A stretch of 64,000 nucleotides of DNA from Microgenomates group bacterium. GTDB taxonomy: Bacteria; Patescibacteriota; Microgenomatia; UBA12405. A program made the translations under genes and the position numbers. Of the stretch, positions 1-40,743 are shown in pieces. Where the stretch lies: contig JBAQNJ010000001.1 of assembly GCA_049303675.1 (NCBI GenBank), forward strand, positions 408,711-472,710, written 5' to 3'. The notes under the pieces were generated by a model. That model searched no databases. It worked only from the letters and a program-made list of their open reading frames with translations, and was not told where the DNA came from. Each line of letters opens with the position of its first letter. The stretch's first letter is position 1.

Positions 1-450
1 GGGGCTTCACTCTCGGGTAAAACAACCCTTGTAAAATATTTGCGCTCTCTAAAAGTTGACTGTTCCGAAATCGACGAGGAGTTGACCCTCCAAAACGGTG
101 GTACCTATCCTACTGACATTAATCAGAAGCACCTCGAATTAATCCCCAAAATTATCAAGGATTTGTTATCCCAAAAACAGGCACTTTTTTTTACCAATAC
201 CGATTATTTTACCCTTGACGATCTCCGCCTCGCCCGTTCATCAGATTTCAAAATATATTTATTGGATATCAATTTGCCAGAATTAGTTAAACGAAACAAG
301 TATCGTATGGAACATGAAAAGTATGAGGATATGTCGCCATGGTTAGAGGATATGGTTGATTACCAAAATGATCTCAAAAAATCAGGTCTCGTCGACAAAA
401 TCATCGACGCCACCCTACCTGTTGAAGATCTTGCTAAAATCATTCTATGA
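1..450 (+). CDS. P-loop NTPase / nucleotide-kinase-like protein, 5' end lies outside the window
   Basis: Frame 1 from nt 1 reads GASLSGKTTLVKYL (Walker A, GxxxxGKT) in frame with track ORF 40..450. No start codon within the window. Confidence 0.5.
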   Translation, partial: GASLSGKTTLVKYLRSLKVDCSEIDEELTLQNGGTYPTDINQKHLELIPKIIKDLLSQKQALFFTNTDYFTLDDLRLARSSDFKIYLLDINLPELVKRNKYRMEHEKYEDMSPWLEDMVDYQNDLKKSGLVDKIIDATLPVEDLAKIIL

Positions 451-1190
451 TTACTGACTCCTATCAAAAAATATTCGAGGATAAAAAAAGAATTTTAGTT
501 GTTACCGCCCACCCCGATGACCTCGAGCTTTATTGTGGTGGATTAGTTTCTCGGCTGATTGCCGACGGCAAAATGGTCAGATCGGTCAAAGTCACTAGCG
601 GTGACATGGGCTCCCGACTAATCAAAGTCACCCCAGAGGAGCTTCGAACTATTCGTGAGCGAGAAGACTCCGCTGCCATGAAGACACTTGGAATTACATC
701 TAAAAACAACATTTTTTTACATGTTATTGATGGCCAAGTTGAAAACAGTCTGGAAAATATTGGCAAAATTGCCCAGCAAATTCGTCTTTTCCAGCCGGAC
801 CTGATTATCACTCACAACCCCATCGATCCCGTTATCCGTTTTGATGCGGATAATAGTTGGTTCAATCATCGAGATCATCGCGCCACCGGCCAGTTGACCC
901 TCGACGCCGCCTATCCTTACTCCCGCGATATATTATTTTATCCAGAGCATTTTAATGATCCACTCGCCCAGTCTTGGGCCTGTACCGAATTTTTGATCGT
1001 CGACTCCTACGCCGATCAAGACAGCATTTTTATTGATGTCACTGACCATGTTGCCAAACGGGTCGAAGCTCACGCTTGCCACTCATCACAGTATTCAGTT
1101 GAAGCCGCCCAAGAATCAGCCGATTTTTTTACCAAGCAGTGGGATAAAGATAAGAACTACGAAACCTTTCGCCATGTCATCGTTGATTAA
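447..1190 (+). CDS. PIG-L/LmbE family N-acetylglucosaminyl deacetylase
   Basis: VVTAHPDDLELYCGG motif typical of LmbE/PIG-L deacetylases; 247 aa. Confidence 0.7.
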   Translation: MITDSYQKIFEDKKRILVVTAHPDDLELYCGGLVSRLIADGKMVRSVKVTSGDMGSRLIKVTPEELRTIREREDSAAMKTLGITSKNNIFLHVIDGQVENSLENIGKIAQQIRLFQPDLIITHNPIDPVIRFDADNSWFNHRDHRATGQLTLDAAYPYSRDILFYPEHFNDPLAQSWACTEFLIVDSYADQDSIFIDVTDHVAKRVEAHACHSSQYSVEAAQESADFFTKQWDKDKNYETFRHVIVD

Positions 1191-1202
1191 CACATTTACT
1201 AA

Positions 1203-1231
1203 TTGACAACACGTACGTAATCACGTACCAT
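1203..1231 (+). promoter_or_regulatory. sigma70-like promoter (TTGACA-N17-TACCAT) with inverted repeat GTACGT-N4-ACGTAC in the spacer; likely TA operator
   Basis: TTGACA at 1203-1208, palindromic ACGTACGT / GTACGTAATCACGTAC in the spacer, 6 nt upstream of the antitoxin ATG at 1237. Confidence 0.4.
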
Positions 1232-1236
1232 ATATT

Positions 1237-1500
1237 ATGAACCTTCAATCATATACAGCCAGTGATGCACGGAAACAACTTTATACTCTAATTAAAACCG
1301 CTGCATCCGGCTTAGCTCCAATCGAAATTAATTTACTTCATACAGATCCGGTAATCATGATGTCCAAGGCCGACTACGAATCATGGTTAGAGACCCTCGA
1401 TATAATGTCCTCCCCAGAAGAAATTAAGGCCATTAGAGCAGGTAGAAAGAGTCGAAAATTGGTATCCCATGCCCAAATGAAAAAACAGTTTGGTATATAA
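1237..1500 (+). CDS. Phd/YefM family antitoxin
   Basis: N-terminus SDARKQLYTLI is typical of YefM/Phd. 87 aa. Overlaps the downstream toxin by 11 nt. Confidence 0.7.
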   Translation: MNLQSYTASDARKQLYTLIKTAASGLAPIEINLLHTDPVIMMSKADYESWLETLDIMSSPEEIKAIRAGRKSRKLVSHAQMKKQFGI

Positions 1501-1753
1501 TCTTCTTGTGGAAATAGTATTTGAAAATCAAGCTATCAAGCAGTTGAAAAAAATACCTAAGGCTGAAATAAGAAAGATTAACTCAAAAATAGAGAAACTA
1601 TCCCAAAATCCGCATATTGGCAAGCGACTTCAGGGAGAATTGATAACTCTATTTGCGCTTCGAGCTTGGCCCTACCGGATTTTATATGAGATTGAAAAGA
1701 ACAAAATAATCATTTGCTCCATTGGCCATCGGCAGGGAGTATACAAAAAATGA
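1490..1753 (+). CDS. RelE/ParE family toxin
   Basis: 87 aa with C-terminal ICSIGHRQGVYKK, matching the RelE/ParE HRKDIY-type motif. Translationally coupled to the upstream antitoxin. Confidence 0.7.
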   Translation: MVYNLLVEIVFENQAIKQLKKIPKAEIRKINSKIEKLSQNPHIGKRLQGELITLFALRAWPYRILYEIEKNKIIICSIGHRQGVYKK

Positions 1754-1758
1754 CAAAG

Positions 1759-1792
1759 TTATGAAACCTTCCGCCATGTCGTCGTTGATTAG
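1759..1792. repeat. Imperfect direct repeat of the PIG-L gene 3' end (copy of 1157-1190)
   Basis: 1161-1190 versus 1763-1792 are 27/30 identical. The second copy still encodes YETFRHVVVD-stop in the original frame. Confidence 0.8.
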
Positions 1793-2285
1793 TCGGCCAG
1801 CCAGTTTGTCAGACCTAGACATTATTTCGGAGATAGTTTTCTCCTGTGCCACTCGCCTTGCGGATCGCCACTATCCCGATTGGTCTAATTATTACACCAT
1901 CGATCGGTTAAAAGAAAAACTAGAAAAGCAAATTGTCTTTTTGTTTTATGAAGACAATCTCGCAATTGCGGTCGTTTTTTTATCAGACAATGATCTTTAT
2001 TATTATTCCAAAATTGATGTAGCCAAGTTCGCCAATCCGAAGGCTAAAGGGATCTATATCAGTACCCTCTCTGTTCGACCAGAGTGTCAGGGTAGGGGCA
2101 TCACCAGTCAGATAATAAGTTTTTGTGAAAAATATACTCTCCAAAATGACGGTAAATATTTACGCCTCGATTGCTTTGGAGAAGATGAATTATTGGTGAA
2201 TTTTTACAAGAAAAACGGATTTGTAGTTGTCGGCCCCATGTCTGAGGAACCCAAATATTTATTAATGGAAAAACCCCTCACCTAA
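1762..2285 (+). CDS. GNAT family N-acetyltransferase
   Basis: QGRGIT motif (GNAT acetyl-CoA binding Q/RxxGxG/A). Track ORF begins at 1722; the ATG at 1762 is more likely. Confidence 0.65.
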
Positions 2286-2315
2286 TTTTTCATCAATATA
2301 TTACAATAGGTAAAT

Positions 2316-3230
2316 ATGAAAATATATCTGGTTGGACCAGAAAAAGAATATCTTTACTCAGTAGAAGAACTTAATAAAGTCGGTAACGTTGTTTATGTAA
2401 ATAATTTATCGGAAATATTTTCCGATCCAGACGATAAAATATTGGGTATTGCTCCAGGTGTTATTGATTGGAAATTTCCACTAGAAGATCTTAAGAAGAT
2501 TCAGAATTTAAAAGGTATCTGTACCAAGTCATCTTGGGGTTTTTATATTGATATCGAATATTGTCGCCAAAATAATATTCACGTATGCAATGTCCCAGGT
2601 GCCAACTCTCGCTCTGTTGCTGAGTATGCATTTTGGATGATGCTGTCTCTTGCCAGAAAATTACCCCAGCAAATCAGGGATAGTTTCCAAATCCATGAAT
2701 CTGACAATTTACATGTTGAAATAAGCGACAAAAAAATCGGTATTATTGGACTTGGTAAAGTTGGTGGTCATCTTGCCAAAATGGCGCAGGGTTTTGGTAT
2801 GGAAGTATGGTATTCAGGGCGCAGTCCCAAGAAAAATTCCTACAAGTATTCCCCAGTCGAAGATCTATTAAAAAATTGTGATTTTATTTTTGATTGTCTC
2901 GAAAATTGTCCTGAGACTCAAAACTATTTAAATAAAGACAGACTTAGTTTGATGAAATCATCTGCCTATTTCATAAGTGTTATGGGCGGCGCTGGTTGGG
3001 GAGTTGAAGATGACGAATTTTTAGTTCAAATGGTTCAAAACAATAAACTGGCTGGTTTTTCGATCGAGAATGAGCACAAAGGCAACTTTCCTAAGAAATT
3101 CGATGGCAATATTTTTATTCCCCCTGCATATGCTTGGAAAACTGTTGAGGCTCAAGATAGAACCAACAAAATATTTACCGAGACTATCGTCGGTCTTGCT
3201 ACTGGTAAAGTTATTAATGTAATTAAATAA
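2316..3230 (+). CDS. D-isomer-specific 2-hydroxyacid dehydrogenase family, NAD-binding
   Basis: KKIGIIGLGKVGGHLAKMAQGFGMEV Rossmann GxGxxG motif; 304 aa. Confidence 0.65.
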   Translation: MKIYLVGPEKEYLYSVEELNKVGNVVYVNNLSEIFSDPDDKILGIAPGVIDWKFPLEDLKKIQNLKGICTKSSWGFYIDIEYCRQNNIHVCNVPGANSRSVAEYAFWMMLSLARKLPQQIRDSFQIHESDNLHVEISDKKIGIIGLGKVGGHLAKMAQGFGMEVWYSGRSPKKNSYKYSPVEDLLKNCDFIFDCLENCPETQNYLNKDRLSLMKSSAYFISVMGGAGWGVEDDEFLVQMVQNNKLAGFSIENEHKGNFPKKFDGNIFIPPAYAWKTVEAQDRTNKIFTETIVGLATGKVINVIK

Positions 3231-3232
3231 AT

Positions 3233-4213
3233 ATGAAAATAAAAGTCACCGAACTCACCCAGCTTACCTTATCAGCTCTCAAAAAGTATGGCTATTCAGA
3301 TAATGAATCAGCCATAATTTCTAGAGTTCTATTATTCGCCCAACTCAGGGGCAACAATCAAGGTGTCGTCAAACTAATTGGCAAAGGCATACCTCGTCGA
3401 CCGGAGGGGCAAGCACCAATCAATATCAAAGACACCCCTGTTTCTGCCCTAATTGATGGCAATGCCACTCACGCGATTATTGTCATGGATCAGTTGGCAA
3501 ATATCGCCATCGATAAAGCCAAAAAATCAGGAATAGGACTAGTTGGTAGCTTTAATACTTCGGAGTCAACTGGCATTTTAGCCTATTATGTCGACAAAAT
3601 TGCTCGTGCTGGATTCATTGGTCTGGCATTTTCCTCTGCCCCATTCCAAACTACTGCCCCTTTTGGTTCCACCGAGGCTCGTTTTTGCACCAATCCTTTG
3701 GCCTATGGTGTCCCCACCAATTCGGATCCCATTCTATTTGATATGACCACTTCTGCTATGGCCTATTATGGACTGATAGAAGCGAAAACGGCCGGTAAAG
3801 ATGTCCCAGAAAACATAGGTTTTAATTCAGAAGGACAGCCAACTACCAACCCAGCCGAAATCATGGGTGGAGCGTTGCGAACAATAGCTGGACACAAAGG
3901 ATCAGGTCTTGCACTTCTAGTTCAAGTTCTTTGCGGACCTCTTGTTGGTGCCGATTCGTTTAACAGCAATAGTCACAATGCCGGTAATTTTGTTATCGCC
4001 ATCGATCCAAGTTTATTTACACCGACTGATGAATTCAAAAACAGAGTTGCCGATGTCGCCACTAAAATAAAATCAGCTCGAAAAATCAATGGAGTCGATG
4101 ATATATTGTTGCCAGGTGAACGCGGTACTCAATTACAAAAACAAAATATAGATAATGATGAGCTCGAAATTGGTGACAATCTATTAGCTGAGTTACAAAA
4201 AGTAGCTCCATAG
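3233..4213 (+). CDS. Ldh_2 family malate/L-lactate/sulfolactate dehydrogenase
   Basis: Ldh_2 family (AllD/ComC-like) signature including GHKGSGLALLVQVL; 326 aa. Confidence 0.6.
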   Translation: MKIKVTELTQLTLSALKKYGYSDNESAIISRVLLFAQLRGNNQGVVKLIGKGIPRRPEGQAPINIKDTPVSALIDGNATHAIIVMDQLANIAIDKAKKSGIGLVGSFNTSESTGILAYYVDKIARAGFIGLAFSSAPFQTTAPFGSTEARFCTNPLAYGVPTNSDPILFDMTTSAMAYYGLIEAKTAGKDVPENIGFNSEGQPTTNPAEIMGGALRTIAGHKGSGLALLVQVLCGPLVGADSFNSNSHNAGNFVIAIDPSLFTPTDEFKNRVADVATKIKSARKINGVDDILLPGERGTQLQKQNIDNDELEIGDNLLAELQKVAP

Positions 4214-4602: not shown

Positions 4603-5406
4603 ATGTTCAAAAATTTATTGATTATTTTTCTCGCCAGTGTCTGGATATCTTTATTAGTCCAATTAGTTCCCCAGCCCCAAGTTTTGGGAGTGACGACTGT
4701 CAACACACCTCCCGCCTCTGGCTATCGTCGCCAATTAGTTAGGACTGACAGTGGCAATTTTTATGTACGCATTATTGCCGCCGATACCAGTAATACTCGC
4801 ATTATCATCGATACTGCTTCTGGCTCAAATTGCGGCAATGATTGTCCGGTTTTATCACTCAAAGATTATGTCAAACGCAATGGTGCCATCGCTGGTATCA
4901 ATGGCGGTTACTTTTGCCCCGCCTCCTATCCAGCCTGTAGCAGCAAAAAAAATAGTTTTGATTTATTGCTGATGAATTCTAAGAAAACTTATTTCAATTC
5001 TGATAACAATATCTATAGTAATAATCCGGCTGTAATTTTTGGAGGTGGATATGTTCGTTTTGTACGCTCTGCCTCAGAGTGGGGGAGAGATACTGGTATC
5101 GACGGTATGATTTCCAATTATCCTCTTTTAGTTTTCAATCGCCAAAATGTTTACGGTGGTTCTGGTGACACCAAGTTGACATCTCGAGGCTCACGGGGTT
5201 TTGTGGCCAACAATGGCAACCGTGTCTATATAGGTATTGTTGAAAGAGCTACGGTAGCGCAGGCAGCCCAAGTCTTGACTACTCTTGGTGTCGACAACGC
5301 TATGAATCTCGACAGTGGCGGATCTACCGCTCTTTGGGCCAATAATGCGTATCGTGCCGGCCCAGGTCGTGCCATCCCCAATGCCATATTATTCGTAGCC
5401 CGTTGA
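4603..5406 (+). CDS. secreted phosphodiester glycosidase-like protein (NAGPA/DUF2233-like)
   Basis: N-terminal signal/TM segment; INGGYF and NLDSGGSTALW motifs. Confidence 0.45.
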   Translation: MFKNLLIIFLASVWISLLVQLVPQPQVLGVTTVNTPPASGYRRQLVRTDSGNFYVRIIAADTSNTRIIIDTASGSNCGNDCPVLSLKDYVKRNGAIAGINGGYFCPASYPACSSKKNSFDLLLMNSKKTYFNSDNNIYSNNPAVIFGGGYVRFVRSASEWGRDTGIDGMISNYPLLVFNRQNVYGGSGDTKLTSRGSRGFVANNGNRVYIGIVERATVAQAAQVLTTLGVDNAMNLDSGGSTALWANNAYRAGPGRAIPNAILFVAR

Positions 5407-5454
5407 TACATATTTTGATATTTACTTTAACTCCAGTAAGTCTATAATTTTCCC

Positions 5455-5745
5455 ATGGTCAAGAAAAGTGATTATGTCACCAAAAAGGATCTAGTAGATC
5501 TAGAGGAAAGATTAGAAATAAAACTAGGCAAGCAATTAGAAGAAAAACTAGATGTAAAATTTGGTGAATATTTTGAGATAATGATCACTAGTGTCCAAAA
5601 AACAATTGATTCTGCTCTAGGTTTACACAAAAGTGAGGTCGAGAAAACCACCACTCAACTGGCTTATGAGGCAGGCGTTATGGAAGGTAAGCTCCAGTCA
5701 CTTGACTACAAAACAGAAGAAAATCCCATAGGATTGGTACTTTAG
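5455..5745 (+). CDS. hypothetical coiled-coil protein
   Basis: 96-aa ORF with charged heptad-like repeats. Confidence 0.3.
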   Translation: MVKKSDYVTKKDLVDLEERLEIKLGKQLEEKLDVKFGEYFEIMITSVQKTIDSALGLHKSEVEKTTTQLAYEAGVMEGKLQSLDYKTEENPIGLVL

Positions 5746-5783
5746 AGAAAAAAGTTTTTGGTTCCGTTGTGTAGCTGATATAA

Positions 5784-6599
5784 TTGGCTGTGTTTACCCA
5801 TCCTGATATAAAAAGTTTTGAGCCAACTCCATATGAATATCCCCGAGGATATTTTGATATCCAATATCAGTTTGCCCAAGAGGTTGTCAGAATAGGTATC
5901 ACTCCTGATATACCGACTGCAGTTGCCAAATATACCTCAATTCCCCGACGCCTTTTTGGTAAAGATTATGTATTGCCTAGCAATTGGCCGGACTTATGTC
6001 ACAGTTCAACTGTCATCTGGAATACATATACTAAGGAAAATGCTCACTTTTTTGTTTCTCCGGAACCAATAAATGATGGCTGTCATCACGGAAGTTTTAT
6101 CTACAAACCATACCCCGATACTGATCTGATAATTGATCGGCCGACAGGGCTACAAAAAATGGAGTTACATTTCAACAATCACCGTGGTCACGTTGGTGAG
6201 TATTCTAGATCCAACTTATCAACACTGACTACCAATCTCTCAGACTTATTTCAGTCAGTTGCCGATCGTAAAAAAGCTGATCCAAATTTTCGACCAGAAG
6301 TCGTTACGCTAGGTTCTTGGATGAACAACTTTACTGGAATCCAGCAGGCATTACCTTCCGAGTTTGTTGACAGTTCTGTAGTAGTTCGTCCACCAAATCT
6401 CTCATTCGCTGGTGACTCTTTGTGGGGACAATTTCTTACCAACAATGCTGGAATTAATAAGCAATATTATCAACATTTTTCCGAAAAAATTGCAACTGCC
6501 GCGGATATTAATGATTTAGTCGATGCCTTTCCTATGCCAGTACTTTTTTCTCGATCTATTATTAAGCCATTTTTTGATAAGTATCAAACTAAGTTATAA
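5784..6599 (+). CDS. hypothetical protein
   Basis: 271-aa ORF, no recognisable motif. Confidence 0.4.
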   Translation: MAVFTHPDIKSFEPTPYEYPRGYFDIQYQFAQEVVRIGITPDIPTAVAKYTSIPRRLFGKDYVLPSNWPDLCHSSTVIWNTYTKENAHFFVSPEPINDGCHHGSFIYKPYPDTDLIIDRPTGLQKMELHFNNHRGHVGEYSRSNLSTLTTNLSDLFQSVADRKKADPNFRPEVVTLGSWMNNFTGIQQALPSEFVDSSVVVRPPNLSFAGDSLWGQFLTNNAGINKQYYQHFSEKIATAADINDLVDAFPMPVLFSRSIIKPFFDKYQTKL

Positions 6600-6605
6600 T
6601 CAAGC

Positions 6606-7328
6606 ATGAAAGATAAAGTCGTAATTGTCACCGGTGCTAGTCAAGGTCTCGGTAAAGAATTATCTTTGCAATTAGTCGCACTTGGCGCCAAGGTAGCTCT
6701 AGTATCTCGTAACGAAAAATTATTAATAGAATTAAAAGAAAAAATTAATAGTAATGGGGGAGTCGCTGAATATTTTATCTGTGACGTTACTGACTTTAAT
6801 CAAGTAAATTCTACAGTAGAAAAAATATTAAAATCTTTTGGTAAAATCGATATTTTAATTAACAACGCCGGTCTCTGGTTACCCGATCAAGTTGCCGCCA
6901 CTGATCAATCTCGAATCGAAAAAATATTTAAAGTTAATTCTCTTGGTCCAATTTATTTTTCTCAAGCAGTAATGTCCCTGTTTGATTCTCAACAAACAGG
7001 CCATCTATTATTTATCAATTCTATCGGTGGATTAAATTATCCAATTATCAAAGATTGGCAAATATACTCTGCCACCAAATGGGCCATTACCGGATATGCC
7101 AAATCGTTAAGTTACAAATACGACAATACTCCAATCAAGGTCACTTCAATTTATCCTGGTCCATTTTCTAGTAACATTGACAAAAATGCTGGTGATGATT
7201 TTGGTGCCGATCGTAGTTTTGAAACACCAGTCGCTGATTTGGCCGAGCAAATAGTCCATGTTTTAAATACTCCGAAAAAACTAATGGTTGATACTCTAGA
7301 ATTAAAAAATACTAACTGGAATTCATAA
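6606..7328 (+). CDS. short-chain dehydrogenase/reductase (SDR)
   Basis: VTGASQGLGKEL (TGxxxGxG) and YSATKWA (YxxxK) motifs. Confidence 0.8.
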   Translation: MKDKVVIVTGASQGLGKELSLQLVALGAKVALVSRNEKLLIELKEKINSNGGVAEYFICDVTDFNQVNSTVEKILKSFGKIDILINNAGLWLPDQVAATDQSRIEKIFKVNSLGPIYFSQAVMSLFDSQQTGHLLFINSIGGLNYPIIKDWQIYSATKWAITGYAKSLSYKYDNTPIKVTSIYPGPFSSNIDKNAGDDFGADRSFETPVADLAEQIVHVLNTPKKLMVDTLELKNTNWNS

Positions 7329-21771: not shown

Positions 21772-22980
21772 ATGTCCAACCAGCCACTAGCCTCACATCT
21801 ACGTCCCAAAAGTTTAGCCGATTTTGTCGGCCAATCTCATCTAGTTGGCGAGGGCAAGCCTCTCCGTCTGGCCATCGACAACCATCAAATATTTTCCATG
21901 ATCTTTTGGGGGCCACCAGGGGTAGGCAAGACAACTTTAGCCAAAATTATTGCTCACGAAGCCCAAGCAGAGCTATACGAAATGTCCGCAGTCTCTGCCT
22001 CTAAAGATGATATAAAAAAAATTCTTGGTAATTCTGTAGAGACGCGCCATGGCACGTCTCTACCCTTAATAAAAAAAATATTATTTCTCGACGAAATCCA
22101 CCGCTTCAACAAAGCTCAGCAAGATTTTCTACTACCCTACGTCGAGTCAGGTCAATTGACTCTGATCGGTGCCACTACTGAAAATCCTAGTTTTGAGGTT
22201 ATTTCCCCACTTCTTTCCCGCTGTCGTGTCTTTACACTAAAAGAACTTTCTGATACTGAAATTGGACAAATTATTGACAGAACTGCCTCGATTCTTTCAC
22301 CCCTTGTTAAAGGGGGGACTAAAGGGGGGATTGGTAAACGTGCAAAAGATTGGCTAATCAGTATGGCCAATGGTGATGCTCGGCAGGCTATCACTATGAT
22401 TGACAATGCATTTACTCTTTATCAAAAAATCACCATTGATACCTTAAAGTCCACCTTACAAAATTCTTTTCTTCGTTTTGACAAGCAGGGCTCCGAGCAT
22501 TACGACACTATTTCCGCTTTTATCAAAAGTATGCGAGCATCAAATATCGATGCCGCCCTCTATTATTTGGCTCGGATGGTCGAGGCAGGGGAGGACCCCA
22601 AATTTATCGCTAGGCGGATGGTTATTTTTGCCTCCGAGGATATTGGCATGGCCAACTCCAATGCTCTGCTTTTGGCCAATCAGGTGTTTCAAGCCGTCAC
22701 TCAAATCGGCTATCCCGAGTGTGCTATCAGTTTGGCCCATGGAGTGGCATATTTAGCCTCGTCTGCTAAGAATCGATCCGCCTATGACGCACTCCGATCA
22801 GCCCAAGCCGATATCAAAACTTACGGCAATCTCCCTATCCCTCTCAATCTTCGCAACGCGGAGACTTCCCTGATGAAGGAGCTGGGTTACGGCAAGGGCT
22901 ATCAAAAATATACTACCGAATCTTTATTGCCTGACAAGATTAAAAACAAAAAATACTTTAAAAATTTAAAGAAAAAATGA
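21772..22980 (+). CDS. rarA: recombination factor RarA/MgsA (AAA+ ATPase)
   Basis: FVGQSHLVGEGKPLRL...FWGPPGVGKTTLAKIIA Walker A, followed by the MgsA C-terminal domain. Confidence 0.9.
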   Translation: MSNQPLASHLRPKSLADFVGQSHLVGEGKPLRLAIDNHQIFSMIFWGPPGVGKTTLAKIIAHEAQAELYEMSAVSASKDDIKKILGNSVETRHGTSLPLIKKILFLDEIHRFNKAQQDFLLPYVESGQLTLIGATTENPSFEVISPLLSRCRVFTLKELSDTEIGQIIDRTASILSPLVKGGTKGGIGKRAKDWLISMANGDARQAITMIDNAFTLYQKITIDTLKSTLQNSFLRFDKQGSEHYDTISAFIKSMRASNIDAALYYLARMVEAGEDPKFIARRMVIFASEDIGMANSNALLLANQVFQAVTQIGYPECAISLAHGVAYLASSAKNRSAYDALRSAQADIKTYGNLPIPLNLRNAETSLMKELGYGKGYQKYTTESLLPDKIKNKKYFKNLKKK

Positions 22981-23327
22981 AAAAGGTTGGCTTGTCTTCT
23001 CCAGCAATTTTTAATCAAAAAACCATTCGCCGGTTGTGGGATGACAATTGCGAATTATGGTACTTCTCTGTAATTGATGTTGTTGAGGCGCTTACAGACA
23101 GTAGTATCCCACGTCGATATTGGTCAGATTTAAAAAATAAACTAATCCAAGAAGGTAGTCAGGTGTACGAAAAAATCGTACAACTAAAGATGAAGTCCCC
23201 TGACGGAAAAAATTACTTCACTGACTGTGGTGATACTGAAACAATATTTAGAATAATCCAATCGATTCCTTCTCTGCAACGCCGAGACCTCGCTTATGAA
23301 AGCGCTTGGCTTTGGAAAGAGATATAA
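22977..23327 (+). pseudogene. truncated Bro-N/DinD-like gene (5' fragment) fused out of frame to a rarA 3' remnant
   Basis: Residues 1-98 are about 55% identical to the N-terminus of the 277-aa protein at 39910. Homology ends after RIIQSIPS at about 23271, exactly where the rarA 3' remnant begins. Confidence 0.6.
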
Positions 23328-23373
23328 AAAATACACAACCAAAGATTTACTCACAGATAAATTAAAAGGCTAA
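23272..23373 (+). repeat. diverged duplicate of the rarA 3' end (remnant)
   Basis: Frame 1 encodes NAETSLMKALGFGKRYKKYTTKDLLTDKLKG-stop, compared with rarA C-terminus NAETSLMKELGYGKGYQKYTTESLLPDKIKN. About 75% nucleotide identity to 22871-22948. Confidence 0.75.
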
Positions 23374-23401
23374 AAACATTATAAACAAACATAAAAATAA
23401 C

Positions 23402-23863
23402 ATGAAATCGGCATTAGAAAATACTAAAGTACTCTGGAGTCTAATTGAGTTAGCACGTGAATCAAGGAAGTCAAAAAGTGTCAAAGACAATCTTGCATCA
23501 GTATTAATTTATGCAAATTTAGCTGAATTTCTATCAGTGGGGATTCTAGATGCCGTTATATCAAGAATTGATAGTGAATCTTTTCTGAAGAAGTGTAAAA
23601 TTAACCCAAAATCATTTGATGAAAGTAAGTCAAATCTGGAAGCGATAGTTCCAAAGTTAAAATTGTTCAACTTTCCAAATGATTTTAAGATTATTCCTCT
23701 AATACTTAAAGTAAAGGATAATAGAAATAAATTATTTCACAATCTACTAAATATGAACCAAAAAAATCTAAACATGAACAGTCTTATAAGAAATATTCAA
23801 GTGGACACTGAAACATTATTTAAATATTGGTCAGCGATATATAAAGATCTTCTGAGTATATAA
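23402..23863 (+). CDS. hypothetical protein, possible HEPN-domain protein
   Basis: 153 aa, very AT-rich gene. RNKLFH fits the HEPN Rx4-6H motif in the C-terminal half. Confidence 0.35.
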   Translation: MKSALENTKVLWSLIELARESRKSKSVKDNLASVLIYANLAEFLSVGILDAVISRIDSESFLKKCKINPKSFDESKSNLEAIVPKLKLFNFPNDFKIIPLILKVKDNRNKLFHNLLNMNQKNLNMNSLIRNIQVDTETLFKYWSAIYKDLLSI

Positions 23864-23883: not shown

Positions 23884-24408
23884 CTAAATATATTTCACTA
23901 ATTTTTCTTCAATATCTTTAGCTATAATTTCTGGCGCATCATGGGAATACATTTTGATATCACCCGTCCTTTGGTATTTATAGAATCTCTCATTTACTTT
24001 TTGGCCCTCCCGACCATTCTCTAGTTTTAAACCCCTGTTCATTTGTCGACTGATAATAATTTTTCTGCTAACTATTATGTCTGGTGATGGTAGCAGAAGT
24101 ACTGAAATCCCTTCCTTTGTTATTGTTTTTTTGTGCAAATTGGCCAAATCTTTGTACACCAAAAACCCAGATGACAATGCAAAAACACAATTATTTTCTG
24201 AGGTATTTAGCAGTTCATAAAACAACTTTGAATTATCGGTACAATATTTTTCATAAACAAAATTAGTATGTAAATATTTGTTCTCTTTTTTTGACCAAAA
24301 TATTTCATCTAGGTCAATTAACTGATAGCCCAAATTTTTTGCCAATATCTTGCCCACAGTTGACTTGCCAACCCCACCAGGTCCTATCATAAATATTCTC
24401 ATAAGCAA
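23884..24408 (-). CDS. P-loop kinase (shikimate-kinase/NMP-kinase-like)
   Basis: IFMIGPGGVGKSTVGKILAKNLGYQLIDLDEIF Walker A plus a kinase-like arrangement; 174 aa. Confidence 0.55.
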   Translation of the reverse strand: MLMRIFMIGPGGVGKSTVGKILAKNLGYQLIDLDEIFWSKKENKYLHTNFVYEKYCTDNSKLFYELLNTSENNCVFALSSGFLVYKDLANLHKKTITKEGISVLLLPSPDIIVSRKIIISRQMNRGLKLENGREGQKVNERFYKYQRTGDIKMYSHDAPEIIAKDIEEKLVKYI

Positions 24409-24428: not shown

Positions 24429-24758
24429 ATGTCCAAAACCATCGTACCTAGCCTCTTTACTCAAAAAGTCTGGCAGTTGGCACTTTCTATCCCTTATGGT
24501 CGGGTCACCACCTATGGCTATCTCACCGTGGCAGCTGGTGGCCATCCCATGATGGCCCAAATGATTACTACCATTCTTAGTCGTTCAACCAATGTCGATC
24601 GTATCCCGTTTCATCGCATAGTTTATGCCGGCGGTAGAGTATGGCTCGATGATAAGCATCGTAAAGATAGACTAAAACTATATAAATCAGAAAATATAAA
24701 TATTGATAAAAATAATAAGATAATCAACTTCGAAGAGATTGTCTACACTTTTTCTTGA
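24429..24758 (+). CDS. alkyltransferase-like protein (MGMT DNA-binding domain lacking the active-site Cys)
   Basis: TQKVWQLALSIPYGRVTTYGYLT...IPFHRIVYAGG. The canonical PCHRV has Phe in place of Cys. Confidence 0.65.
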   Translation: MSKTIVPSLFTQKVWQLALSIPYGRVTTYGYLTVAAGGHPMMAQMITTILSRSTNVDRIPFHRIVYAGGRVWLDDKHRKDRLKLYKSENINIDKNNKIINFEEIVYTFS

Positions 24759-39909: not shown

Positions 39910-40743
39910 GTGGCTACAAAAGATAATTCAGTAATAATTTTTCAAAACAACAAGGTTCGTCGAATTTGGGATGAACAAAAAGAGCTATGGTATTTTTCAG
40001 TTGTCGACATTATTGAAATTTTGACTGGGAGTACAAATCCTCAAGTTTACTGGCGTGTCTTGAAAAAGAGACTAATCGATGAGGGATCAAATGAAACCGT
40101 TACAAATTGTAACGGTTTGAAAATGCTCGCAAGTGATGGCAAAATGAGAATTACTGATGTAGCTGATACCCAAAATATGTTTCGAATTATTCAATCAATC
40201 CCGTCTCCAAAAGCCGAACCATTAAAATTATGGCTGGCCAAGGTCGGATATCAACGATTAGAAGAAATTGAGGACCCTGAATTAGCCATCAATCGTGCAT
40301 TACAAAACTTTCTAAAAAAAGGATATTCAAAAGAGTGGATAAATCAAAGGTTAAAAACAATTGAAGTTAGAAAAGAACTAACAGACGAATGGCAGTCACG
40401 AGGAGTTGAAGAAGGTTTAGAATTTGCAATTTTAACAAATGAAATAACCAAAGCATGGTCAGGCAAAACTGTTCGCGAGTATAAAAATTTCAAAAATCTA
40501 AAAAAAGAAAATTTACGAGATAATATGACCAATTTAGAATTGGTCATAAATACACTTGCCGAAGCAACAACCACTGAAATTTCCAAAGATAGAAAACCTA
40601 AAACACTTAATGAAAGTAAACAAATCGCCAACCGCGGTGGACAAATAGCTGGTAACGCCAGAAAGGAAATAGAATTAGAAACGGGCAAGAAAATAGTTTC
40701 TCCCAAAAACGCAAAAAACACAAAAAATGCTCTGTTATCTTGA
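39910..40743 (+). CDS. DinD-like DNA-damage-inducible protein with N-terminal Bro-N domain
   Basis: N-terminus IFQNNKVRRIWDEQKELWYFSVVDIIEILT is a Bro-N/antirepressor-like fold. The C-terminal part (LRDNMTNLELVINTLAEATTTEISKDRKPKTLNESKQIANRGGQIAGNARKEIELETGKKIVSP) resembles E. coli DinD. It is a paralogue of the fragment at 22977. Confidence 0.55.
   Translation: MATKDNSVIIFQNNKVRRIWDEQKELWYFSVVDIIEILTGSTNPQVYWRVLKKRLIDEGSNETVTNCNGLKMLASDGKMRITDVADTQNMFRIIQSIPSPKAEPLKLWLAKVGYQRLEEIEDPELAINRALQNFLKKGYSKEWINQRLKTIEVRKELTDEWQSRGVEEGLEFAILTNEITKAWSGKTVREYKNFKNLKKENLRDNMTNLELVINTLAEATTTEISKDRKPKTLNESKQIANRGGQIAGNARKEIELETGKKIVSPKNAKNTKNALLS

Follow-up and report, generated by a model that had tools for sequence, protein, structure and literature searches.

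How does a genome come to carry two 3' ends of the same gene? The question is raised by the rarA (mgsA) locus of a Microgenomates group bacterium, on contig JBAQNJ010000001.1 of assembly GCA_049303675.1, where rarA runs directly into a truncated Bro-N/DinD-like gene that is itself followed by a diverged copy of the rarA terminus. We analyzed the locus within a stretch of 64,000 nucleotides, here called the window, and compared it with rarA loci of other bacteria, mostly of the candidate phyla radiation (CPR). We propose, with a probability of roughly 60%, that the locus is a recombination scar of horizontal DNA import, made without a recombinase of its own through one homologous and one illegitimate joint. 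The scar is rather old and is without function of its own. The features of the locus are as follows, in window coordinates.

21772-22980, plus strand: rarA (mgsA), intact, 402 aa (open reading frame and Pfam)
22853-22980, plus strand: tail 1, the functional rarA 3' end, RNAETSLMKELGYGKGYQKYTTESLLPDKIKNKKYFKNLKKK-stop, repeated downstream (alignments)
22977-23327, plus strand: ORF116, the initial 99 Bro-N/DinD-like codons, then 17 out-of-frame codons through the rarA tail copy
23271-23275, plus strand: joint from Bro-N homology to rarA-tail homology, with a 3-4 nt overlap, TCT(C)
23275-23394, plus strand: tail 2, a displaced or imported rarA 3' end, pseudogene fragment, CNAETSLMKALGFGKRYKKYTTKDLLTDKLKG-stop
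39910-40743, plus strand: complete Bro-N/DinD-like paralogue of 277 aa, against which the truncation was judged (Pfam Bro-N, PF02498, 9.4e-10)

Two rarA ends and a truncated Bro-N gene

The resident rarA is a full-length open reading frame (ORF) with Pfam matches to MgsA_C (3.3e-50), AAA_assoc_2, and AAA. The best relatives of the protein are from Ca. Shapirobacteria, at 85% amino acid identity at most, and the nearest relative of the gene reaches 75% nucleotide identity at best. Tail 1 ends canonically in ...LLPDK(I/L)K(N/G)KKYF..., as in the compared rarA loci and RarA proteins, and it outscores tail 2 in 80 of 80 species-representative rarA loci and in all 120 of the best database proteins. 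Tail 1 completes the working gene, and rarA itself is unaffected. We saw no signal of a mosaic breakpoint within rarA in a sliding-window comparison against six relatives at 72-75% identity.

The natural end of rarA (...KNLKKK-stop) overlaps the natural Bro-N start (MKKV..., as in relatives) by the four letters ATGA, which hold both the rarA stop and the start of ORF116. Behind rarA in L089, L090, and L105, the next gene likewise follows tightly or overlaps, and it is a different gene each time. ORF116 is NCBI protein WAV41_00200, and its Bro-N homology spans 22977-23274. Residues 7-99 align with residues 6-99 of the 277-aa Bro-N gene of the window, with 48 of 94 positions identical (51%; BLASTP E = 2e-30), and the match stops exactly at RIIQSIPS. 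Relatives continue from there with PKAEPFKLWLA..., but ORF116 reads LQRRDLAYES... because the second rarA end is translated out of frame. ORF calls and BLASTP thus reproduce the coordinates of both genes and the switch at RIIQSIPS that had been noted in an earlier, unaided reading of the DNA (the original prediction).

The C-terminal two thirds of the Bro-N protein are lost after residue 99, and no C-terminal fragment was found elsewhere in the window. At most, ORF116 is a stand-alone Bro-N domain. By itself, it has no Pfam match at E<=0.01, and many of its database relatives carry PF02498. Short Bro-N proteins that are 63-76% identical to ORF116 are numerous in CPR metagenomes. The full-length family measures about 270-280 aa, the 120 closest relatives of the fragment are all 201 aa or shorter, and the lengths of its best 150 cluster representatives lie between 85 and 383 aa. 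We checked three truncated Bro-N loci on long contigs (L081, L084, and L087). All three are genuinely truncated intergenic remnants in unrelated places, and none is flanked by gene-tail repeats. Bro-N is not a conserved neighbor of rarA either, as it occurs in the flanks of 3 of about 160 rarA loci and never adjacent to the gene. Truncation points are enriched at residues 96-120, just past the domain, but spread to 210. We considered a recombination site just after the Bro-N domain and drew no conclusion, with end points from 96 to 210 and many proteins probably cut by contig ends.

Tail 2 reads CNAETSLMKALGFGKRYKKYTTKDLLTDKLKG-stop from 23275 in a frame other than that of ORF116. A local nucleotide alignment of 22840-22985 with 23255-23385 scores 63, against 17.8 +/- 2.7 and a maximum of 30 in 1000 shuffles, and a second scoring scheme gives z = 16.3. 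The tail peptides are identical at 22 of 30 positions by BLASTP (E = 7e-15). The diverged rarA terminus that had been predicted behind Bro-N therefore withstands shuffled controls. A repeat search with 6-nt seeds missed the repeat, which is too diverged for it, and scored local alignment was needed. Two details of the prediction changed. The identity of the tails, estimated at about 75%, is 69% when 93 in-frame nucleotides are compared and 71% in a gapped alignment of 130 nt. The copy was also thought to end at the stop at 23371; the similarity runs beyond it to about 23394, best against L092. The natural rarA stop region lies at about 23392 in tail 2, and the next gene, ORF153, has its ATG at 23402. 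The repeats are about 128 nt (22853-22980) and 120 nt (23275-23394) long.

The arrangement recurs without a mismatch over 5438 nt in the Logan assembly of run SRR28062879, a separate deposit that may not be independent of the NCBI data. The longest identical in-register run common to both tails is 7 nt, GCAACGC. With no longer run shared, a k-mer assembly loop cannot have made the repeat. Tail 2 is altered at residues that are invariant among the compared orthologues (GYGKGY to GFGKRY and LLPDK to LLTDK), and its stop is a TAA where orthologues have AAA, the lysine before KYF. Tail 2 is a decaying pseudogene, untranslated in its own frame.

The pattern of differences between the tails carries the argument for import. 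Nine of the 31 aligned codons are identical, 13 differ synonymously, and 9 differ non-synonymously, and the 29 nucleotide differences fall 8/4/17 on the three codon positions. In our simulation of an in-place duplication, the copy in use drifted at synonymous sites only, the spare copy decayed neutrally, and each run went on until 29 differences had accumulated. Over 4000 runs, the means were 4.9 synonymous and 16.3 non-synonymous codon differences, versus the 13 and 9 observed. Nine or fewer non-synonymous differences arose in 0 of 4000 runs, 13 or more synonymous ones in 1 of 4000, and both together never (P<1/4000). At third codon positions, the two tails are 45% identical, which does not exceed the identity of tail 2 to orthologues of other CPR classes. 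Of 77 orthologous tails, just one comes as close to tail 2 as tail 1 does, and it comes closer still. Tail 2 is 75% identical to the rarA end of L092 at the nucleotide level, against 69% to tail 1. Given the synonymous bias and the failure of the simulation, one tail must have evolved as a working rarA end in another genome, which agrees with the idea in the original prediction that one tail came from a different rarA lineage. Most of the divergence between the tails accrued while both served as RarA C-termini in separate genomes.

We could not find an empty site or a donor, either in a contig scan (matches up to 73% amino acid identity) or in a large protein database (up to 85% amino acid and 75% nucleotide identity). 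About 160 other rarA loci have a single tail, and none is near enough to be a true empty site.

The same arrangement at other gene ends

Next, we scanned the tails of all ORFs in the window. Duplicated tails were found for two genes only, rarA and a PIG-L gene. The features of the PIG-L case are as follows.

1158-1792, plus strand: the parallel case as a whole, PIG-L tail, toxin-antitoxin (TA) pair, and tail copy (z = 13.3)
447-1190, plus strand: PIG-L gene, with its tail at 1158-1190, YETFRHVIVD-stop
1237-1500, plus strand: Phd/YefM antitoxin gene
1490-1753, plus strand: ParE/RelE toxin gene
1760-1792: PIG-L tail copy, YETFRHVVVD-stop, followed by a GNAT gene from about 1806

The two PIG-L tails are identical at 29 of 33 nt and show two synonymous and one conservative codon differences. 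The TA locus at 1.2-1.8 kb had been predicted to share the architecture of the rarA locus, and it does (z = 13). The three nearest relatives of the TA cassette (68-69% amino acid identity) lie in unrelated contexts, without the PIG-L tail or any tail repeat. The spacer at 1191-1236, ahead of the Phd/YefM-ParE genes, holds a TTGACA promoter-like motif and a repeated ACGTACG operator-like motif. These motifs are kept in the 68-69% identical relatives, at about 3195-3234 in L175 and about 3195-3230 in L177, behind unrelated genes. Therefore, the TA cassette is an autonomous promoter-plus-two-gene unit.

We then extended the tail scan to 1.52 Mb with 2332 ORF tails, mostly CPR DNA around rarA. Six further significant cases were found, which with the PIG-L gene makes seven places other than the rarA locus (z from 10.8 to 91). 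Four of the six are at rarA. In L174, the tails are 131 nt long and 94% identical, and enclose two small membrane-protein genes. Their 8 differences, every one synonymous, are confined to the first 60 nt, and a 71-nt tract is identical. A tyrosine recombinase gene (6374-7321) begins about 520 nt past the second L174 tail, outside the repeat-bounded segment; it is a conserved syntenic neighbor of rarA that also occurs in insert-free relatives such as L076. In L173, a YafQ-type TA pair lies between the tails. In L122 (2025-2220) and L172 (5132-5400), the second tail follows 48 and 108 nt past the stop, respectively. The L122 spacer is essentially a GC-rich inverted repeat, CCCTCCGAAGCTCTT...AAGAGCGTAGGAGGG, as is that of L172, GCCCGCGCGT...ACGCGCGGGC, and these hairpins could be terminators or small palindromic elements.

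The remaining two cases are at other genes. In L133 (1857-2700), the roughly 30-nt end of secA, KKYKKCHG-stop, occurs three times, at 1862, 2244, and 2665, and the tails separate a 125-aa ORF without known function, a MazG-like ORF, and a DUF1653 ORF. The secA gene ends in ...GKKYKKCHGA-stop, the first of the ORFs runs into the second tail (ERKYKKYYGV-stop), and the DUF1653 ORF starts inside the third. The secA 30-mer matches only true secA ends and these copies in 3.1 Mb searched on both strands. In L119, the tail of a CAP-domain gene is repeated after a GH1 glycosidase gene.

Pooling seven gapless cases gives 41 synonymous versus 16 non-synonymous codon differences (p = 1e-13 against 25%). 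Therefore, these loci as a rule acquired a second allele of the gene end by import. The cargo between the tails is unrelated from case to case, comprising TA pairs, small membrane proteins, a MazG-like gene, a GH1 glycosidase, and bare hairpins. A recurring integration mechanism aimed at gene ends had been suggested from the window alone. The recurrence is borne out by the four rarA, the secA, and the CAP loci; dedicated machinery is not, as there is no recombinase, no core, and no constant border.

Four matches of the tail scan were discarded, those in L052 and L144 as tandem paralogues and those in L042 and L016 because they look like spurious or low-complexity ORFs. Other repeats came to light in the same material. 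In L012 (11006-11269), L009 (9771-10132), and L071 (12259-12542, minus strand), a gene of 586-727 aa has a tail, KTIPERCSNKxC...GRKK-stop, that recurs 120-220 nt past the stop. In these three CPR genomes, the repeats may be a split tandem Zn-ribbon module, interrupted by a stop or frameshift, rather than an import scar. In L013, two consecutive genes carry a nearly identical 41-nt element at their 3' ends (4052-4092 and 4762-4802), with a 285-aa ORF lying just downstream. We take this ORF to resemble an IS200/RAYT-type Y1 transposase, from its motif LMPNHFHLLL. In a Kaiserbacteria-like lineage, a XerC/D-type gene is conserved downstream of rarA (L076 at 7147-7200, L161, and L174), with variable spacing in L161 and L174.

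The window also has an unusual strand composition. GC skew is negative in all 1-kb windows of positions 1-64000 except 2001-3000 and 5001-6000, and the cumulative skew falls near-steadily from -0.1 to -8.2. Most long ORFs are on the plus strand. The gene-rich strand is thus the C-rich one, contrary to what leading strands usually show. Another Microgenomates genome has also been reported to have an oddity of strand composition (PMC7143001).

Joints, direction, and competing explanations

The right-hand joint is sharp: Bro-N homology (...ATT CCT TCT C) can be followed as far as 23274, and rarA homology in register sets in at about 23271, before the GCAACGC at 23276. The sequence here suggests 3-4 nt of microhomology, and the joint has the look of an illegitimate one.

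We found no gene for a transposase, integrase, recombinase, or other mobile-element protein when all genes at 16.6-27.7 kb and 0-3.2 kb were searched with Pfam, and phmmer with Xer and rve seeds found no homologue in the 64-kb window. There is no tRNA gene or Rfam match at the rarA locus, and promoter- and terminator-like matches there are not above chance. The left border of the duplicated rarA tail is RNAET in the window, GNLPIP in L174, KGY in L173, GEGY in L122, and GYGR in L172. The borders differ in all five independent rarA cases, which argues against a fixed integrase attachment (att) site. An integrase att system would show an integrase, a core identical in both repeats, and the same position in each case; we found none of the three.

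Behind tail 2 lies an interval that differs between relatives. Its features are as follows.

23402-23863, plus strand: ORF153, no assigned function, 7 nt past the presumed original stop of tail 2 (no Pfam match)
23884-24408, minus strand: P-loop kinase gene, SKI/AAA_33 (Pfam SKI 4e-13; GC 32.6%)
24429-24758, plus strand: ogt-like gene, DNA_binding_1, the conserved right flank (Pfam 1.9e-13)

ORF153 has the lowest GC content (28.6%) of the 56 window ORFs of at least 150 aa (39.7 +/- 3.8%), and no close relatives of it were found in JGI metagenome contigs. The GC content of the kinase gene is below the 5th percentile of the window, and the gene is missing from the corresponding interval in relatives. 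Only 20 nt separate its start from the ogt-like gene, which is divergent to it. The kinase gene is convergent with ORF153; the two have the lowest GC content of the genes in the window and may have been acquired as a two-gene module. The ogt-like gene is found downstream of rarA in L088, L089, L090, L092, and L105, and the intervening genes differ. Relatives hold GrpB, radical SAM, RhuM/Fic, peptidase S51, MazG-like, and NUDIX genes between rarA and ogt. With conserved genes on both sides, the rarA-to-ogt interval behaves as a hot spot.

In the import reading that we prefer, the donor would be DNA of another Shapirobacteria-like lineage that carried its own rarA 3' end. Recombination would have placed this DNA in the variable stretch that separates rarA from the ogt-like gene. 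One end may have been resolved through homology in the conserved flanking gene, and the other by an illegitimate joint that would have fused Bro-N codon 99/100 to about codon 361 of the rarA copy. A likely route would be DNA uptake and RecA-type recombination, either as homology-facilitated illegitimate recombination or as a single crossover of a circularized fragment. Natural competence has been demonstrated in cultivated Saccharibacteria (PMC10633639). A donor fragment that reached into the donor's upstream conserved gene would carry the tail of that gene along, so that the pseudo-tail would stand in its native spacing to the donor's downstream gene. Import in this form explains the tight junction of tail 2 with ORF153, the truncated gene, the varying borders, the synonymous bias, and the lack of an enzyme gene. 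We infer the recombination pathway, the microhomology, and the direction.

As to direction, we slightly favor the segment from 23275 to about 24410 (tail 2 with ORF153 and the kinase gene) as the incoming piece, and Bro-N as a resident gene that lost its 3' part at the joint. The preference for the tail 2 side rests on its low GC content and on the canonical replacement topology. The mirror image, in which tail 1 and the Bro-N fragment came in and displaced a native tail 2, is nearly as probable. The original prediction had the truncated Bro-N gene as the insert. The truncation is real, but an insertion of Bro-N is not required, since a resident Bro-N gene cut by incoming low-GC DNA fits at least as well.

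Several points weigh against our reading. In a mirror scan of 2243 ORFs, no convincing case of a duplicated 5' gene head turned up. A symmetric process with one-sided homology should yield heads too, and the asymmetry of tails over heads fits none of the models cleanly, although for rarA alone, tails were duplicated in 5 of 165 loci versus heads in 0 of 165 (only p = 0.06). The GC content at third codon positions (GC3) of tail 2 (0.42) equals that of the rarA body (0.42), versus 0.58 for tail 1, which mildly favors tail 2 as the native end. The GC and GC3 signals conflict, so composition does not settle the direction. The homologous joint, the parents of the illegitimate joint, and the direction are deduced with the nearest rarA at 75% nucleotide identity. 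Finally, the backing for competence would come from the literature on cultivated Saccharibacteria rather than from this genome.

The alternative that survives best is a cassette addressed by homology. A small circle with a rarA tail and the Bro-N fragment, formed by excision between direct repeats or by illegitimate deletion in the donor, would enter the resident tail through a single RecA-mediated Campbell crossover, with the same arrangement as its product. The regenerated repeats would allow excision, re-integration at the same gene end in other genomes, and arrays. CPR cassettes might then move without a recombinase of their own, with the conserved 3' end of a core gene as a RecA homology address, and build integron-like arrays. 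The triple secA tails of L133 do resemble a cassette array, and the 71-nt identical tract of L174 is flanked by allelic differences, as expected around a crossover. The repeats are also the most conserved 3' codons of conserved genes (rarA LLPDKLKGKKYF, secA KKYKKCHG), which would offer homology between lineages, and a similar cycle of invasion, amplification, and release has been proposed for restriction-modification units with long direct repeats (PMC2853133). However, the relatives of the TA cassette and the three truncated Bro-N loci elsewhere have no tail repeats, so the cargo does not visibly travel with the tail. Tails that are 69% identical with no shared run above 7 nt offer too little to RecA, unless the divergence is mostly later decay. 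A circular form was not seen, and a Bro-N fragment would be useless cargo. We therefore consider such a cassette doubtful. If it were true, the excess of tails over heads would reflect a real polarity of the process.

A decayed integrative element is less probable still. An integrase-bearing prophage or island would have entered site-specifically at the rarA 3' end, bringing a replacement tail (attL) and Bro-N as its first gene, and the stretch between Bro-N codon 100 and attR would later have been deleted. Elements that integrate at the 3' ends of genes and bring a replacement end are well known. Viral contigs often carry full-length Bro-N relatives (155 matching stretches in IMG/VR), and the L174 recombinase stands close to a second tail. 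That gene, however, is a conserved neighbor outside the repeats. The locus itself has no recombinase, the 64 kb hold no Xer or rve homologue, no core exceeds 7 nt, the left borders differ among the rarA cases, and the deletion would need to end exactly at the start of attR. No rarA fragment was found beside Bro-N on phage or circular elements at 80 IMG/VR loci with full-length relatives. The circular element with a rarA fragment, Bro-N, and an integrase that the original prediction had suggested searching for is accordingly absent from the collection scanned (80 viral contigs).

An in-place tandem or segmental duplication of the rarA end, its unused copy diverging without any foreign DNA, is the simplest class of event, and the 8/4/17 split alone is not significantly off a rough 1:1:2 expectation (hand calculation), but we dismiss it as very improbable because of the simulation (P<1/4000), third positions diverged like those of unrelated orthologues, the 8 of 8 synonymous differences of L174, and the unrelated low-GC gene after tail 2, where a tandem copy predicts Bro-N again.

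Known systems and meaning for CPR genomes

The closest known kind of event for the rarA scar is insertion with long target duplication (Nobusato et al. 2000; Furuta, Abe and Kobayashi 2010, PMC2853133). It is described for restriction-modification genes in Helicobacter, Haemophilus, Neisseria, and others, with variable direct repeats of more than 30 bp, no mobility genes, and mostly competent hosts (PMC2853133). The likeness lies in direct repeats above 30 bp and of varying lengths (about 128 and 120 nt at rarA, and 33 nt in the TA case), in the lack of a transposase or integrase, and in repeats some of which overlap gene 3' ends. In long target duplication, the repeats correspond to one copy in other genomes, and the cargo is often an addictive module (PMC2853133). 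Its repeats, however, hardly differ from one another or from the empty target (43-47 of 46-47 bp, and 384-417 of about 400 bp). The rarA tails of the window, at 69% identity with synonymous bias, are two alleles and not a duplicated target. The cargo differs as well, being here a Bro-N fragment, TA pairs, MazG-like genes, and others.

[quoted passage not shown] The rarA locus shares with it an end with a homologous anchor, an end with microhomology, a truncated resident gene, and the lack of an element enzyme, the parents being deduced in our case. We know of no description in which a second copy of the 3' end of the anchor gene is a hallmark of this process, and the process does not predict the absence of mirror-image duplicates of 5' heads. 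It has been reported from three naturally competent species and from E. coli conjugation (PMC3240628). Knowledge of that system comes from laboratory selections, in contrast to the rarA locus, where anchor, donor, and recipient are not observable.

A further likeness is offered by integrative elements and prophages entering the 3' ends of tRNA, tmRNA, and some protein genes, as the incoming end restores the gene and the old end is displaced to the far side. Those elements need an integrase and an att core at a fixed position, neither of which was found here. Integron cassette arrays also consist of small, often promoterless genes with a recurring short element and a fixed entry point, as at secA in L133. 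In contrast to integrons, the recurring element here is the coding 3' end of a neighboring conserved gene. No IntI integrase was found among the ORFs examined, which were three L133 ORFs by Pfam and the window by Xer-like and rve seeds only.

CPR bacteria, or Patescibacteria, have genomes of about 1 Mb with few recognizable mobile elements, and their gene content varies between close lineages. The rarA scar is a datable footprint of how this variation comes about. Such scars extend long target duplication beyond restriction-modification cargo and to a new part of the bacterial tree. They could be mined across thousands of CPR genomes for gene gain without a recombinase, for hot spots, and for the kinds of cargo that are retained (toxin-antitoxin pairs, nucleotide-cleaning enzymes, and glycosidases). 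The rarA scar is of value as one example of a footprint that gene gain leaves repeatedly in CPR bacteria.

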